This document shows, in pieces, positions 8,772 to 14,235 of a DNA stretch of 27,079 nt (positions are counted from its first letter, which is position 1; every line of letters begins with the position of its first letter). The DNA is taken from positions 1-27,079 of the forward strand of contig JAZGDP010000093.1 of assembly GCA_036477885.1 (NCBI GenBank). Reading direction: 5' to 3'. Origin of the DNA: Dehalococcoidia bacterium (lineage in GTDB: Bacteria > Chloroflexota > Dehalococcoidia > JAZGDP01). The translations under genes were made by a program, and so were the position numbers. A model generated the notes under the pieces. It was not told the DNA's origin, did not search any database, and saw only the letters and a list, made by a program, of their open reading frames with translations.

Positions 8772-9668
8772 CTAGGAAAAGATATCCCCGTACTTGATCC
8801 AATAATAGGCTATATAGGCCCCTGCTCCCACCAAGAACAGGGCGCTTATAGTGTGGACATGGGGCATCAAACCCTTGAGAGAGCGGGCCACCGCCCCTCG
8901 GAACAGGGCCGCTCCTACGGTAACGGCGATTAAGATAACCCCCATCCCCATGGAGTAGCTGATAAACTGAGCGAAGGAGTCGGCGAGCCCCTGGGTGGCA
9001 ATGGCGCTACCGACCACCACGAGAAAGATGGGTAAAGTGCAGCTCAGGGAGCCCACTGCATACGCTATGCCAAAGAGGAATACGTTGCGCAGGTTGCGCT
9101 GGGGGGTAATTGTCACCCGGCTGGCCGCCATGATACCCAAGGGTTTGTGAGTAGCAAACAGCCACAAACCCACCAGGGCCATAGCTATCCCTATGATAAG
9201 CCCTCCGATGGGGAAGGCACTAATTAGCCAGTTGCCCCCCAGGGAGATGATATATCCCACCAGGGAGAAAATGGCGATAAACCCTGTCGTGGCCACTAAG
9301 GCCAGAACAAGGGCACGGAAGAGACGAACAGGAGCTGGCGACTGGTAGAATCCCTCCTCCTGGGTGCCGAGATTATAGGCTACATAGGAAGGGAGCATGA
9401 AGAAGCCGCAGGGATTAACGCTGGCCACCATGCCGGCGCCGAAAGCGTAGCCGAAAGGCAAAGCCTCGGAGAGGCTAGCGAGGCCTCCCTCGGCGTCGCT
9501 GCGCACCGAAAGCAGGGCCGCCATGGCCGCCACTACCCCGCCGATGACGGCAATGAAAATACCCAGCCTGATGACTGACTGCTTTCGCGATACCCCGTTT
9601 AACGGTGAGCCTTGAATGGAAGCGCCCTCTCTACTATTGCCCTTGGCTATTCTGAAAGCCAGTTTCAT
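8772..9668 (-). CDS. ccdA: Cytochrome c biogenesis CcdA / DsbD-beta family membrane electron transporter
   Basis: Multiple hydrophobic helices; the two redox Cys lie in VNPCGFFMLPSY and SLSCTLPIF. Confidence 0.85.
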   Translation of the reverse strand: MKLAFRIAKGNSREGASIQGSPLNGVSRKQSVIRLGIFIAVIGGVVAAMAALLSVRSDAEGGLASLSEALPFGYAFGAGMVASVNPCGFFMLPSYVAYNLGTQEEGFYQSPAPVRLFRALVLALVATTGFIAIFSLVGYIISLGGNWLISAFPIGGLIIGIAMALVGLWLFATHKPLGIMAASRVTITPQRNLRNVFLFGIAYAVGSLSCTLPIFLVVVGSAIATQGLADSFAQFISYSMGMGVILIAVTVGAALFRGAVARSLKGLMPHVHTISALFLVGAGAYIAYYWIKYGDIFS

Positions 9669-9701: not shown

Positions 9702-10370
9702 TTATTCTTCGCTTACCGTTCCCAGGGCCTCAAGGAGCCTCTCCTCGATCTCCTTTTCCCCCATTTTCCCAATTCGCTTGTCCCGAATTATCCCATCTCG
9801 ATCGAGGAAATAAGTGGTAGGAAGAGCAGTAAGAGAGTAAGCCCGGGATACCAAGGCCTCCCCATCCAGCAACACAGTGTAACTCATGCCTGTTCTAGCT
9901 ACATAACGTGCTACAGGCTCCCGATTCTCCAGCAAGTCGACCCCTAAGAACTCCACGCCCTGGCTGTTGTATTTCTGGTACACCGCCTCCAGGTCAGGGA
10001 TCTCCGCCCTACATGGAGGGCACCAGGTGGCCCAGAAGTTGATGACCACCGCCTTTCCTCGGAGGTCGGCCAGGGAGACCTCATTTCCCTCTAGGTCGCT
10101 AAGGGTAAAGAGGGGTGCGGGAAAACCCACCTTTGGAGCGGGTGACAGCTCCCCCTCCAATGTTATGTTCACCGCTCCGGTAGCGCTAAGGTCACCACCT
10201 CGGATGTCCCCAGCGCTAGGAGTTACCAAAGAGTTATCTGAACTCCGGCTAACGATGATAGCCCAACTTACAAGGGCGATGAAACCCAAAAGACCCGTTA
10301 CAGCTAATATTGTAGGCCATCGCCTAAAGAAAGGGTCTTTTATTTTCTCTACATGGGTTGGGTTATCCAT
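9702..10370 (-). CDS. Membrane-anchored TlpA/ResA thiol-disulfide oxidoreductase
   Basis: N-terminal TM helix, NFWATWCPPC and ALPTTYFLDRDG. Confidence 0.92.
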   Translation of the reverse strand: MDNPTHVEKIKDPFFRRWPTILAVTGLLGFIALVSWAIIVSRSSDNSLVTPSAGDIRGGDLSATGAVNITLEGELSPAPKVGFPAPLFTLSDLEGNEVSLADLRGKAVVINFWATWCPPCRAEIPDLEAVYQKYNSQGVEFLGVDLLENREPVARYVARTGMSYTVLLDGEALVSRAYSLTALPTTYFLDRDGIIRDKRIGKMGEKEIEERLLEALGTVSEE

Positions 10371-10438
10371 GCTTTACCCTTGATTCGGCTCCCCCCTACT
10401 TTCCCTAAGCATTGCAAGCGGATTACTAGTATATCTTA

Positions 10439-10990
10439 TCACAAAACTCTCTCTACTTCCCTCTTCAGGGTGTCGTAGGAAGTAGCCCCATTGTCGCGAT
10501 ACACAATCTTTCCCTCTCTGTCTATTATGACCGTTGTGCCGAGGGCAGTTATGTTATACGTCTTGGTAACAAATCCGTTGGTGTCCTGGCCCCAGATGAC
10601 CTCCCCTGCGTCCACACTATTCCAGAAAACCTTCCAGGTCGATAGCGAGTAAGAGGGAAGTAAGTTGATGGCCACCACCTGCACCCCTTTATCGGCGAAC
10701 TCGGCATGAATCCTGCCCAGCGCTGGAGCCTCCAGCGCACAGGTGGGTCAACCAGGGAAGGAGAAGTATAACACCGTGACCTTCCCTAGCTGCTGGGCCA
10801 ATTGAAAGTCTCCGTTTAAGGTTGGTACTGTGAAATCGGACGCCAGGGGTCCACGGGGTTTCTCAATAGAGATATCGTTGCCTTCCCCAGAGGTTAGCTG
10901 CCAAGTGGCAACAGCGGCAATCACAGCCATCAATATCAACAGCGACCCAGCAGATAAAAACAGGAGGCTCTTTCTCCCTTGAATCGTCAC
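10439..10990 (-). CDS. Membrane-anchored TlpA/redoxin-family selenoprotein (U-P-T-C), 183 aa
   Basis: ORFs 10748-10990 and 10439-10684 are in one frame joined by TGA at 10748-10750, reading LYFSFPG-U-PTCALEAPAL. The TGA sits at the first position of the redoxin CxxC and is followed by a hairpin. Confidence 0.85.
10720..10738 (-). promoter_or_regulatory. Candidate bacterial SECIS element
   Basis: GCGCTGGA-GGC-TCCAGCGC is a perfect 8-bp stem whose loop starts 18 nt after the TGA; a lower stem CCTG/CAGG is possible. Confidence 0.7.
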
Positions 10991-10999
10991 TCCTACCCC

Positions 11000-11494
11000 C
11001 TATTCAGCCGTTATTCCACCGAGAAGTGCCCCGGCGCCGTGGAAATTCTTTCCCCCTTCCATCATCAAGGCCTGAAACTCGGTGTATTGGAAGGGGGTGG
11101 ATTCATCGCCCTGATCGGGCAGGAGTAAAGAGGCCGCTGATATATACCTCATTATAGCTATCTTAAAGGACTCATGAGCCTCGGTCACCTCAGAAGGCAC
11201 CGGTTCCAACCCCTCAACCCTTTCCAGTTGCTTCTCCAAGTCCTTGAGGACTAGGCGGGTATCTGCCTCAAACTCCGAGCTTAACCGATCGTCCTGACTG
11301 ATAGACACAGCCAGAAAACCGAGGATGCGAGTATCGTTCACCAGGCTTAGGGTGACCTGGTTGAATACATCTATGTACTGGTCTGTGGAGACCCTAGGTG
11401 TGATCGGGGTGGGGGTGGCTTCAGTAGCCCTATTAAGACACGCCGCAGCTATAAGAGACACAGCCACAACTAAAAGCAAAAGGCCCTTCATCAT
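11000..11494 (-). CDS. Hypothetical lipoprotein
   Basis: Basic N-terminus, hydrophobic core, IAAA-C lipobox, then a Thr/Pro-rich linker (TEATPTPITP). Confidence 0.7.
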   Translation of the reverse strand: MMKGLLLLVVAVSLIAAACLNRATEATPTPITPRVSTDQYIDVFNQVTLSLVNDTRILGFLAVSISQDDRLSSEFEADTRLVLKDLEKQLERVEGLEPVPSEVTEAHESFKIAIMRYISAASLLLPDQGDESTPFQYTEFQALMMEGGKNFHGAGALLGGITAE

Positions 11495-11529
11495 TCCCCT
11501 GCAAAAGTGTTTAATACGCCTGACAGAAA

Positions 11530-11691
11530 TTAGCCCTCGTCTTCTCGGCCCCCGCTTTTCAGTTGCCCCTCTATGACTTCCCTTGGCTCAGGGAGTTCCT
11601 CTTTCTCTCCACCTTTGAACCTCTTGGCCAGGAAAACTATACCGAGAACTGGCGCAAGACAACATGCAGCCACCAATAAGATAAATGGCAT
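11530..11691 (-). CDS. 53-aa single-TM microprotein with vicinal Cys-Cys (MerT/MerF-like motif)
   Basis: MPFILLVAACCLAPVLGIVFLAKRFKGGEKEELPEPREVIEGQLKSGGREDEG; SD AAGGGG upstream; starts 18 bp after the merA stop; below the length of any ORF in the track. Confidence 0.7.
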   Translation of the reverse strand: MPFILLVAACCLAPVLGIVFLAKRFKGGEKEELPEPREVIEGQLKSGGREDEG

Positions 11692-11709: not shown

Positions 11710-13146
11710 CTATTCTATGCAACAGGTCATCACCGAGATATCTCGGGTGAAGGCCTGGGCCGCCAGCTTTATCCCCTCGCTCAGGGTGGGATAGACGTGC
11801 ACCGTATCTATGATGTCGTCAACTGTTAGCTTGAATTTCACCGCTAATGTGGCCTCGTGGATGAGGTCGGCGGCGTGGGGAGCTACTATGTGCATCCCCA
11901 GGATCTGCGAGCTCTGGGGGTGGATCACCATCTTTATCACCCCTCGAGTCTCACCAATAACCATGGCCTTAGGGACTCTGGACACAGGCACTACACGACA
12001 GGCGCAGGCGTTGAAGCGCCGCATCTCCTCCTCCTCGGTTATGCCCACGCTAGCCACCTGGGGGTTGGTGAAGACGGCGTGGGGCACCTCGTCATAGTTA
12101 ATGGACCGCTCTGAACCGGCTAAGGCGTTCTCGGCCGCAAGCGCGCCCTCCTTGGCGGCGACGGTCTCCAGCAAGGCATTCCCCACACAATCCCCGGCGG
12201 CGTAGATATCAGGGGTGTCGGTCTGATAGTATTGGTCTACCTTGATGAACCCACCCTTATGGGTCTGTACACCCGATTTATCCAGGGCCAAGTCTTCGGT
12301 GTTGGCCTTGACCCCGGCGGCCAGGAGTAGCTCCTGGGCCTTCAACACCTCCTCATCGGTGCCGAAGGAGTGCTTTCTCAGGCCAGGCTGGCTTTTGCGG
12401 ATGGACACCACCTTCTCCTTGCCCTCTTGGGCGACTCTTTTCAACGTCACCCCGACTCGGAAGGAGATGCCCTCCTCTTCCAGGCAACGCTGTAGCTCCT
12501 GGGCCACCTCCGGCTCCTCTCTGGGCAATATCTGGTCCATGGCCTCCAGCACGGTGACCCTGGTGCCGAAGTGGGCGAACATCTGGGCGAACTCCAAGCC
12601 TAGGGGCCCCGCACCGATGACTATCATGGACTCTGGCAGCTCCTGGAGCTCCATGGCAGTAACATTGCTCAGCCAGGAGATGGTGTCCATCCCCGGGATA
12701 GGAAGGGGCTTGGTGGAGGAGCCGGTGGCGATGAGGAGCTTTTCTCCCTCATAGGTCTGCCCATCGACATCGACCTGGGTAGGCGAGACGAACTTAGCGC
12801 GGCCGTCGAGATAGGTAACCTCCTTCAGGCCCTCCACCACGTTTATGTAGTTGCTCTGCCGTGCCGTGGCAACCAACTCATCCTTCTGCTGGATAGCCAC
12901 TGCGAAGTCAAATCTAGGTCTGTGGCCGTTAGCCAGGGCCTTGAACCGGGGCGGGTCGGGGTAGAATAGCTCGTCGCCTACCGTAAGAAGATGCTTGCTG
13001 GGCATACAGCCCACGTTGACGCACGTGCCACCAATAGGAAGTCCACTATTGATCATTAGGGCCGACTTTCCCAGGTCCGATGCCTTGGTAGCGGCAGCGA
13101 AGGCCGCCGCCCCACCACCCACAATAACAAGATCGAATTTATCCAT
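11710..13146 (-). CDS. merA: Mercuric reductase-like flavoprotein disulfide reductase without an N-terminal NmerA domain
   Basis: [27 protein letters not shown] and C-terminal [19 protein letters not shown]. Start placed at ATG 13146 after GGGAGG. Confidence 0.85.
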
Positions 13147-13261
13147 TACTTCTTTACCTCCCAAGATTAGTTTGATTTGCTGTCGAAAAATCCCTTATAA
13201 TCCCACACCTCGAAAGCCCTAGCCGCAGCAACCTGAGTTCAAATGCCTGTACAGGGTTTCA

Positions 13262-13807
13262 TTAGCCTAGCAACGGCTTTAATTCCTCCACCAGCTTCTC
13301 CCCCGAGAACACTACCGGATACCCCCACCCCACCAAAGGCTCGGGGACCTTATCCCATTTAGCCTGGCCTCCAAAGAGCAAATAGACATCCCAAATCACC
13401 TCATCTTGGAATGGCCTACCTAAGAACTGCTCCACCTCCTCAGAGGAGCCAGCAAATTTAGCAGCGTCACCCTCCCTCCAGGAGGGAAGGACCTTCTCCT
13501 TGAACCATCGTGCCAACTCCCGTTTCCCATCCCAGAAGTGGGAAACTCGAGGGTCGTCCAGAAGCTTCTGGGCCTCGGGCACCTTTTCCCGGGAATCGCC
13601 GGGCATCATAGGCAGCCAAACCGTATAAACGGAGAGCTTGGAGCGGCTGTTCTCTCCCAGGACCTTCTCCTGCACCCAACGGGCGCCGTCAGCACAGTAA
13701 CCTCAAGTTGGAGATAGGAAAAGGAGGAGACGCGGTACGCCGCGGTCGTCGTTAAAGCGAGCCTTCAAGGTATCGTGGGCAGCCTGCTGGACTAAATCAT
13801 CTTCCAT
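13262..13807 (-). CDS. Cytoplasmic thioredoxin-like selenoprotein (U-G-Y-C), 181 aa
   Basis: Frame is open from ATG 13807: MEDDLVQQAAHDTLKARFNDDRGVPRLLLFLSPT-U(TGA 13703-13705)-GYCADGARWVQEKV, continuing into track ORF 13262-13675. Confidence 0.82.
13670..13697 (-). promoter_or_regulatory. Candidate bacterial SECIS element
   Basis: CTGTGCT-GACGG-CGC-CCGTT-G-GGTGCAG hairpin including G-U pairs; the loop starts 18 nt after the TGA. Confidence 0.6.
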
Positions 13808-13834: not shown

Positions 13835-14152
13835 CTACTTGATTATCTGACAAGCTAGGACCCGCTCGGCGTTGTCTGCGAGAATCTGCTGTCCCAGCTC
13901 CAATATGTCCTTCACCCTCGGGTCGGCTATGGTGTAGTAGACGTTTTTACCCTCCCGATAGGAAACGACATATCCGCACCATCGCAGGCATGCCAGGTGG
14001 CTGGAGACCCTTCCCTGGGGCGAACCCAGCAGCTCCACTAACTCACCAACGTTCTTGTCGCCCTCCAGAAGGAGCTGAAGGATTTTTACCCTGGTGGGGT
14101 CGCCCAGGCCTCGGAAGAATTTAGCGGTAACCCCTGCGGTAGTAGGGACCAA
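13835..14152 (-). CDS. ArsR/SmtB family metal-sensing repressor, CmtR-like
   Basis: FFRGLGDPTRVKIL, SSHLACLRWCGYV and C-terminal LACQ. The start codon is uncertain. Confidence 0.9.
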   Translation of the reverse strand: MVPTTAGVTAKFFRGLGDPTRVKILQLLLEGDKNVGELVELLGSPQGRVSSHLACLRWCGYVVSYREGKNVYYTIADPRVKDILELGQQILADNAERVLACQIIK

Positions 14153-14182: not shown

Positions 14183-14210
14183 ATATACTCCTATACGTTT
14201 ATAAGTATAT
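14183..14210. promoter_or_regulatory. Candidate ArsR operator, imperfect 14-14 palindrome
   Basis: ATATACTCCTATAC|GTTTATAAGTATAT, 11 of 14 positions complementary; overlaps the -10 box and probable start site. Confidence 0.65.
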
Positions 14211-14235
14211 TAACGCTGGAACTCCTTTTTGTCAA
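14207..14235 (-). promoter_or_regulatory. sigma70-type promoter of the arsR-merA operon
   Basis: TTGACA (14235-14230)-17 bp-TAATAT (14212-14207). Confidence 0.75.

Follow-up and report, generated by a model that had tools for sequence, protein, structure and literature searches.

The locus examined here raises the question of whether a redoxin gene that stands next to mercury-resistance (mer) genes, and carries an in-frame TGA at the place of its first catalytic cysteine, encodes a selenoprotein, and what such a protein would contribute to its surroundings. The stretch of DNA analysed, henceforth the window, comprises 27,079 nucleotides (positions 1 to 27,079 of contig JAZGDP010000093.1, forward strand, in NCBI GenBank assembly GCA_036477885.1) from a Dehalococcoidia bacterium of the Chloroflexota. 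From the letters of this stretch alone, the original prediction had proposed a membrane-anchored selenocysteine (Sec) redoxin of the TlpA family. According to our analysis the gene very probably is a genuine selenoprotein gene. Its product is not a canonical TlpA, as both a tree and the gene neighbourhood show, but a member of a mer-linked clade without the cis-proline (cis-Pro) of thioredoxins, and the chances are about even that it serves the mer operon as a MerP-like component capturing Hg(II) with a selenol/thiol pair. The gene and its parts are the following:

10442..10990, minus strand: predicted gene of 183 codons for the selenoprotein redoxin, starting at GTG and ending at the stop TGA 10439-10441.
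10748..10750, minus strand: UGA very probably read as Sec (U81), first position of the UxxC site; aligns with an invariant first Cys, with TGA kept in 8 further orthologous sequences.
10720..10738, minus strand: candidate Sec insertion sequence (SECIS) hairpin with an 8-bp stem; its apical loop, GGC, spans +21..+23 counted from the U of UGA (folding, codon conservation, covariation).
10901..10966, minus strand: predicted N-terminal signal-anchor or transmembrane helix, residues ~9-30, with K/R N-terminal of the helix (hydrophobicity and model helix 14-30).
10436..10441, minus strand: tandem stops TGA-TAA at the gene end.

The two open reading frames (ORFs) concerned, 10748-10990 and 10439-10684 on the minus strand, share one frame and have only the TGA at 10748-10750 between them. 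Read-through gives a product of 183 residues with the active site FSFPG-U81-PTC, in which C84 is the second active-site residue; the strings SDFTVPTLNG and TTVIIDREGKIVY and an N-terminal hydrophobic segment (residues 9-27) are all present in it, as had been predicted. Pfam assigns this product to Redoxin (PF08534; 59 bits against a cut-off of 26.6), and AhpC-TSA is also above its cut-off (54.7 bits). The GTG start at 10990 is supported by the metagenome runs described below, since all four of those aligned read ATG there (10990 C>T), as do related strains. The tandem stops, read as a safeguard in a UGA-recoding host by the original prediction, are indeed there (10441-10436), but they are found only in the window and in one close relative (L041) and not in L025, so that the safeguard idea is still speculation.

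The position of the TGA carries much of the argument. U81 and C84 form the sole invariant columns in alignments of 13, 10 and 60 homologues, and U81 falls in the column of the first Cys in all of the 13 and 60; the joining of two ORFs into one gene through a single TGA at the first redoxin Cys was borne out. Nor is the TGA private to this assembly: it recurs at the same site in eight further diverged copies (L041, L025/L042, L071, L080, L081, two paralogues in L082, and L083), which share 45-90% identity and come from several metagenomes. Identity to the window redoxin is ~90% for L041, a Logan contig, 55% over the redoxin domain for L071, which originates from a genome (G235) of the same class as the source genome, and 45% for L025/L042. 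The sequence context in these orthologues is F(S/F)FPG-U-P(T/S/E)C, with FSG-U-LTC in L080.

Standard gene callers, without exception, break up these Sec redoxin genes, and the databases reflect this. Our full-length protein search returned only Cys relatives of at most 35% identity, because the Sec orthologues are split, and the C-terminal half gave one close relative. A search of 1.8 billion representative proteins retrieved at least 10 clusters (50% identity) of C-terminal-only fragments that begin just past UxxC, which is the expected footprint of split selenoprotein genes; all four of the C-terminal-only clusters that were looked up have the TGA. The sequences L080, L081, L082 (both paralogues) and L083 were found through such C-terminal-only gene calls. 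When 400 genomes of the class were searched with the SECIS pattern, as many as 3 mismatches being tolerated, just one further genome matched, so that the Sec form is rare among reference genomes. Because gene callers split them, Sec redoxin genes escape inventories of mer operons as well as counts of selenoproteins from sediment metagenomes.

The source genome, a metagenome-assembled genome of 1.67 Mb and 78% completeness, encodes the Sec machinery: SelA (478.7 bits), SelB, a Sec-containing SelD, and a tRNA-Sec with the anticodon TCA. In the selD gene (G000:C40:5444-6367, minus strand, locus L084) a TGA stands in frame where GG-U-ASK is usual (TKSGG-U-ASKFS), so that SelD too is a selenoprotein. 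Folding of selD yields a downstream hairpin whose 3-nt apical loop, as in the redoxin gene, falls at +21..+23, its G being at +22.

The hairpin of the redoxin gene begins 10 nt past the UGA and pairs 10731-10738 with 10720-10727 (+13..+20 with +24..+31 from the UGA) around the loop GGC at 10728-10730, its G being at +22. Bacterial SECIS elements, to judge from fdhF of E. coli and from bSECIS models, are expected to have a small apical loop with a G at about +20-24. By itself the folding energy is not unusual (z = -0.99), and we therefore relied on conservation and covariation. Around the UGA, columns with identical residues retain identical codons in 10 of 12 cases, against 11 of 43 elsewhere (Fisher p = 5e-4), and orthologues that otherwise differ at most synonymous sites show little or no difference over the 36 nt that run from the Pro-Gly codons to the end of the hairpin. 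Standard pairs occupy 95.8% of the pair cells across the nine sequences carrying the TGA; both sides have changed in a compensatory way in two pairs (C-G to U-A and G-C; G-C to A-U), and wobble changes are seen in three. Covariation scored 0.257, against 0.159 for shuffled alignments (2/500) and at most 0.083 for slid registers, the sample of nine sequences being small. The hairpin is consequently conserved among TGA-containing orthologues and covaries as a SECIS element would, although neither its energy nor Rfam singles it out, no Rfam family matching it, SECIS families included.

Sediment metagenomes give a further view of the same element. In four runs from four studies, of which the contigs were aligned to 10300-11500, depth rises 3- to 80-fold exactly over 10707-10768, and dozens of otherwise dissimilar contigs match only this core of ~60 nt. 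None of the 40 differences listed (84 more exist) falls within 10707-10770. The sediment contigs break at the core, and in run X4 its depth reaches ~1300 against ~16. The UGA/SECIS core at 10707-10768 thus behaves as an assembly-graph repeat common to many family members.

As to the protein, an AlphaFold2 model built on the 60-sequence alignment has a mean predicted local distance difference test score of 90 (~98 over the domain), and consists of a helix at 14-30 and a thioredoxin-fold domain, with U81 and C84 at the start of helices 82-85 and 88-101. The best Foldseek matches in the PDB are a DsbE-like protein and ResA of B. subtilis (E 1e-12 to 1e-13, TM score 0.88-0.91, root-mean-square deviation ~1.5 A); peroxiredoxins of the Bcp type rank below them, and an ESM Atlas search returned generic TlpA/AhpC clusters only. 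Residues 9-27 are the sole strongly hydrophobic stretch, preceded by K/R and followed by 15 residues without any, and relatives have a similar anchor or a lipobox (L071, P0149, L007, S. aureus, Rhodococcus). This charge pattern and the anchors and lipoboxes of the relatives indicate that the redoxin domain faces outward. A membrane-anchored, outward-facing protein with a ResA/TlpA-like thioredoxin fold is therefore strongly supported by the model and the topology check, as the original prediction had it. Its remark that an exported Sec redoxin would be unusual was overstated: exported UxxC redoxins of the TlpA/redoxin type are catalogued as selenoprotein families, according to the family entries in PMC13188914 and PMC1088965.

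The assignment to the TlpA/redoxin family (cd02966/PF08534) held for the Pfam domain and the fold, but not for TlpA proper. Seven canonical TlpA/ResA-like proteins, among them a WCPPC protein of the window (9702-10370), group together (100/100) in a maximum-likelihood tree built from 26 sequences. The Sec redoxin falls in the other clade, together with MerA-adjacent Cys relatives (G004, G028) and the TlpA-family members encoded in two kinds of mer operon, the S. aureus pI258 type and that of a Rhodococcus plasmid. Within it, eight Sec forms and one Cys form (P0146) make up a 98/98 sub-clade, which would fit a single origin of the Sec/SECIS state. None of the NCBIfam cut-offs is reached (ResA, 54.9 against 170; DsbE, 29.4 against 123; TlpA, 24.9 against 230), and no NCBIfam model covers the Sec redoxin clade above cut-off. 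Pfam finds no HMA match in the Sec redoxin, the fold of which is thioredoxin-like.

The members of this clade are set apart by the residue before strand beta3. Where the canonical TlpA rows retain cis-Pro, the window protein has Gly151, and the 60 family representatives have D (32), G (13), E (9), S (2) or P (2), so that D, E, G or S stands there in 56 of 60. In thioredoxins and cytochrome-maturation proteins, cis-Pro is conserved more strongly than CxxC itself (PMC2757866); it is thought to be part of the polypeptide-substrate site and to block metal binding at CxxC (PMC2757866, citing Su et al. 2007).

The genes around the Sec redoxin, all on the minus strand, are:

13835..14152, minus strand: metalloregulator of the ArsR/SmtB family, first gene of the run (family match; promoter-like site 14207-14235).
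13262..13807, minus strand: second candidate selenoprotein, SPT-U-GYC, between arsR and merA (in-frame TGA motif).
11710..13164, minus strand: core-only mercuric reductase MerA, ending ..CCIE (TIGR02053, 520.6 against a cut-off of 454.45 bits, equivalog).
11530..11691, minus strand: 53-aa membrane peptide that has one helix and a vicinal Cys-Cys pair (94% conserved in L041).
11000..11494, minus strand: 164-aa predicted lipoprotein, directly upstream of the Sec redoxin (92% conserved in L041).
9702..10370, minus strand: canonical TlpA/ResA-like redoxin, WCPPC, cis-Pro present (34-41% identical to redoxins adjoining ccm-type CcdA).
8772..9668, minus strand: CcdA with two transmembrane cysteines, of the cytochrome-c-maturation (ccm) type (tree and identity).

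MerA lies two genes upstream of the Sec redoxin. Neither the 53-aa CC peptide nor the 164-aa lipoprotein has a family match; the former resembles the first helix of MerT/MerF-type transporters, and the latter is conserved only in the close relative L041. The second candidate selenoprotein has no NCBIfam match at E <= 0.01, the model 'TUGYCR motif thioredoxin fold (seleno)protein' included; a CGC loop at +21..+23 can be drawn for it by hand and is not chosen by minimum-energy folds.

Orthologous loci repeat the association with genes for mercury or thiophilic metals in varying order. In L042/L025 the order is HMA, MerE (PF05052, 48 bits), Sec redoxin, CcdA-like, HMA, MerT-like; in L082 it is MerA ending SCCAA, Sec redoxin, Sec-glutaredoxin-like gene, CC-motif membrane protein, second Sec redoxin, CcdA-like; in L083, Sec redoxin, HMA and a MerA N-terminus; and in G235, MerR-family regulator, Sec redoxin (here a lipoprotein), CcdA-like, HMA and a second DsbD_TM protein. 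Named mer genes accordingly occur in four of the six independent Sec-form loci (the window, L025/L042, L082 and L083), G235 having only the MerR-family regulator and HMA, and L081 being too short. Of the loci with Cys forms, G004 shows the order MerA, redoxin, CcdA-like, its MerA being at equivalog level, the redoxin of G028 adjoins an equivalog-level MerA, and G047 shows the same order as G004 with a MerA-like gene that is cut by the contig end and stays under the cut-off (310.5 bits). The CC-motif membrane protein of L082 (95 aa, motif VVCCGG) occupies a place comparable to that of the 53-aa CC peptide in the window. Just before the glutaredoxin-like ORF of the same cluster (L082:1441-1641, plus strand) stands an in-frame TGA, within SGG-U-LFC, and the ORF probably belongs to another selenoprotein of this mer-type cluster. 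Genes with a spermidine-synthase domain adjoin three independent Sec-redoxin loci (L042:1560-4880, plus strand; L082:3768-5343, minus strand; L072:3238-4861, plus strand), two of them being large TPR-repeat fusions and one a pair of SpeE and S-adenosylmethionine decarboxylase; this linkage may be coincidence or real.

The canonical TlpA gene sits between the Sec redoxin and CcdA genes. A CcdA that could supply electrons, as originally suggested, is encoded in the vicinity, but it is of the ccm type: it is 65-74% identical to, and clusters (97/98) with, the CcdA of ccmH-ccmF-x-x-ccdA-redoxin loci on Chloroflexi-type contigs, and not with the partners of the Sec redoxin clade, being only 41-46% identical to mer-linked CcdA-like proteins. 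Its closest named homologues are from Chloroflexi/Anaerolineae metagenome-assembled genomes. Since, moreover, no other CcdA turned up in the 78%-complete genome, which encodes a cytochrome-c assembly protein as well, the TlpA-CcdA pair of the window looks like a housekeeping pathway supplying reductant for cytochrome maturation. The Sec redoxin may draw on this CcdA all the same. A weak promoter-like site lies just upstream of tlpA (10428-10455, minus strand), and a promoter/terminator scan is compatible with either co-transcription or separate transcription of tlpA-ccdA and the mer genes. When a complex of a Cys-type redoxin and its CcdA-like neighbour was predicted, the score was 0.00, which speaks neither for nor against a pairing of the two.

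The role that we put forward, at about even chances as said, would run as follows. SelB and tRNA-Sec very probably decode the UGA at 10748-10750 with the aid of the hairpin at 10720-10738. Compared with Cys, Sec has a much higher affinity for Hg and a lower pKa, and the loss of cis-Pro together with the use of Sec favours metal binding over disulfide exchange. The reduced U81/C84 selenol/thiol pair would bind Hg(II) outside the cell, possibly stripping it from exposed protein thiols. Ligand exchange would then move the Hg(II) to Cys pairs of membrane proteins, the candidates in the window being the 53-aa CC peptide and/or CcdA, and those in orthologous loci the mer-type CcdA-like protein, MerE or MerT-like proteins, from where it would reach the C-terminal Cys pair of MerA and be reduced to Hg(0). 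Should the pair be oxidised, CcdA could re-reduce the Se-S bond with electrons from cytoplasmic thioredoxin. The sum of these steps would be a seleno-analogue of MerP on a thioredoxin scaffold. That this is the dedicated function of a widespread clade, present in marine and other sediments and in Chloroflexota-like and other lineages, which gave up cis-Pro and adopted Sec in order to bind Hg(II), we hold more tentatively, at somewhat below even chances.

Several points weigh against Hg(II) capture. Mercury binding by members of the clade is purely our inference, and the literature searched contained no experimental paper on the mer-operon TlpA/CcdA pair in Hg(II) resistance or uptake. The Se-Hg bond is stronger than the S-Hg bond, so that a hand-off to acceptors with thiols only would be uphill and would need the pull of MerA. 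No MerA is adjacent in G235 and G027. In the window the Sec redoxin is not followed by a mer-type CcdA-like partner of its own, which is missing in this lineage, and the CcdA at hand is of the ccm type. In L041, a TAG replaces Gln64 (L041:1264-1266) and a C-to-A change (L041:1353) breaks one pair of the SECIS stem; this copy may be decaying or mis-assembled, and the gene may be dispensable in some strains. The clade is nearly always paired with a CcdA-like protein, the mark of a redox-cycling reductase, and the ResA-type Glu (Glu87), three residues past the second Cys, is kept in 52 of 60 representatives; a conserved Glu87 and a persistent CcdA-like partner favour such a reductase. These last observations, along with the ResA-like fold (TM score 0.9), speak for the main rival, a pure reductase role. 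The same selenoprotein, in the same location and fed by CcdA, would keep the outward Cys pairs of Hg(II) uptake proteins (CC peptide, MerE/MerT-like and CcdA-like proteins) reduced, or would resolve oxidised or Hg-bridged thiols, Sec speeding up the exchange and protecting against over-oxidation; redox catalysis is the general function of UxxC selenoproteins, in the account of PMC1088965. We consider this role possible but rather doubtful, because cis-Pro, part of the polypeptide-substrate site in thioredoxin-fold reductases (PMC2757866), has been lost, and because a canonical cis-Pro TlpA already stands beside CcdA in the window and would make a second plain reductase redundant.

The remaining explanations fare worse. 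A housekeeping extracytoplasmic reductant, for cytochrome c maturation or thiol homeostasis of the envelope, with the mer cluster adjacent by accident, could appeal to the neighbouring TlpA and the sole, ccm-linked CcdA and to the weak promoter-like site in the gap before tlpA; yet the Sec redoxin clusters with mer-linked redoxins and not with ccm-linked ones (24-29% identity to the latter), the majority of its independent loci contain named mer genes, and the cis-Pro that CcmG and ResA keep is absent, which makes this reading improbable. A peroxidase-type antioxidant that shields the envelope from Hg-induced oxidative stress is very improbable. It would agree with the Pfam AhpC-TSA match and with the Prx-like UxxC selenoprotein family known from the family list of PMC1088965, but the hallmarks of peroxiredoxins described in PMC2757866 and PMC13188914, an Arg where others have cis-Pro and a PxxxT/SxxC(U) motif, are both absent, the motif here being FPG-U-PTC and the residue Gly/Asp, and the best structural matches are ResA and DsbE rather than Bcp-type peroxiredoxins. 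That the TGA is a true stop, in a pseudogene, between two small ORFs or through an assembly error, finds a foothold in the additional TAG and hairpin mismatch of L041, and in the representative protein P0156, which reads LLPWLPTCALEAPALG, fits the loss of one base from the TGA with a frameshift, and is possibly a pseudogene or a sequencing error at the Sec site. Against it stand the TGA at the catalytic position in nine diverged sequences with both halves conserved at the protein level, a SECIS that is conserved and covaries, complete Sec machinery, and the same core in four independent metagenome runs, so that we regard it as extremely improbable.

Were the capture of Hg(II) by the Sec redoxin to prove true, selenium would have a functional place in genuine mercury-resistance operons. 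To our knowledge, the characterised bacterial mercury-resistance proteins use cysteine only. The very high affinity between mercury and selenium, which underlies much of mercury toxicology, would be exploited by microbes for capture or detoxification, mercury resistance would be tied to the supply of selenium in sediments, and the long-ignored TlpA/CcdA genes of classic Gram-positive mer operons would acquire a role. A cataloguing effort of 2022 states that it had never seen selenium in bona fide mercury-resistance operons. Selenoprotein catalogues do include one family that is MerT-like, and another, UxxU and metal-binding, under the name 'putative mercuric reductase'. The mer-operon reviews PMC3466566 and PMC8261052 mention neither TlpA/CcdA genes nor selenocysteine.

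The nearest known systems are those classic operons, ordered merR-TlpA-CcdA-merT-merA-merB in the S. aureus pI258 type and ArsR-hyp-TlpA-CcdA-merA on Rhodococcus pRWAY01. Their TlpA-family proteins share with the window redoxin the clade (100/100 from canonical TlpA), an anchored or lipoprotein N-terminus, a replaced cis-Pro, a C-terminal YR...(Y/F)D.LK region and adjacency to merA, as well as, in Rhodococcus, an ArsR-type regulator; they differ from it in having Cys at the first position (21-25% identity), whereas the window has Sec with a SECIS and a ccm-type CcdA. TlpA-like proteins with Sec are in themselves already known, and exported ones have precedents. The catalogued UxxC redoxins share with ours a TlpA/redoxin domain whose CxxC has Sec instead of its first Cys, and a SECIS directly downstream. 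For these families the entries in PMC13188914 and PMC1088965 give domain and motif with no mercury context, and the FSFPG-U-P(T/S/E)C-x-LEAP signature, the lack of cis-Pro and the mer linkage that distinguish the window protein go unmentioned in those descriptions. With ResA, CcmG and TlpA it has in common the fold, the membrane anchor, CxxC-x-x-E and a CcdA neighbour; it departs from them in the loss of cis-Pro, in scoring under the NCBIfam ResA cut-off, and in a separate clade and a mer instead of a ccm/res neighbourhood. The likeness to MerP, finally, is functional and not of family: both would be extracytoplasmic two-ligand Hg(II) binders that pass the metal to a membrane transporter, but MerP has an unrelated, ferredoxin-like HMA fold with GMTCxxC, contains no Sec and is not redox-coupled to CcdA.

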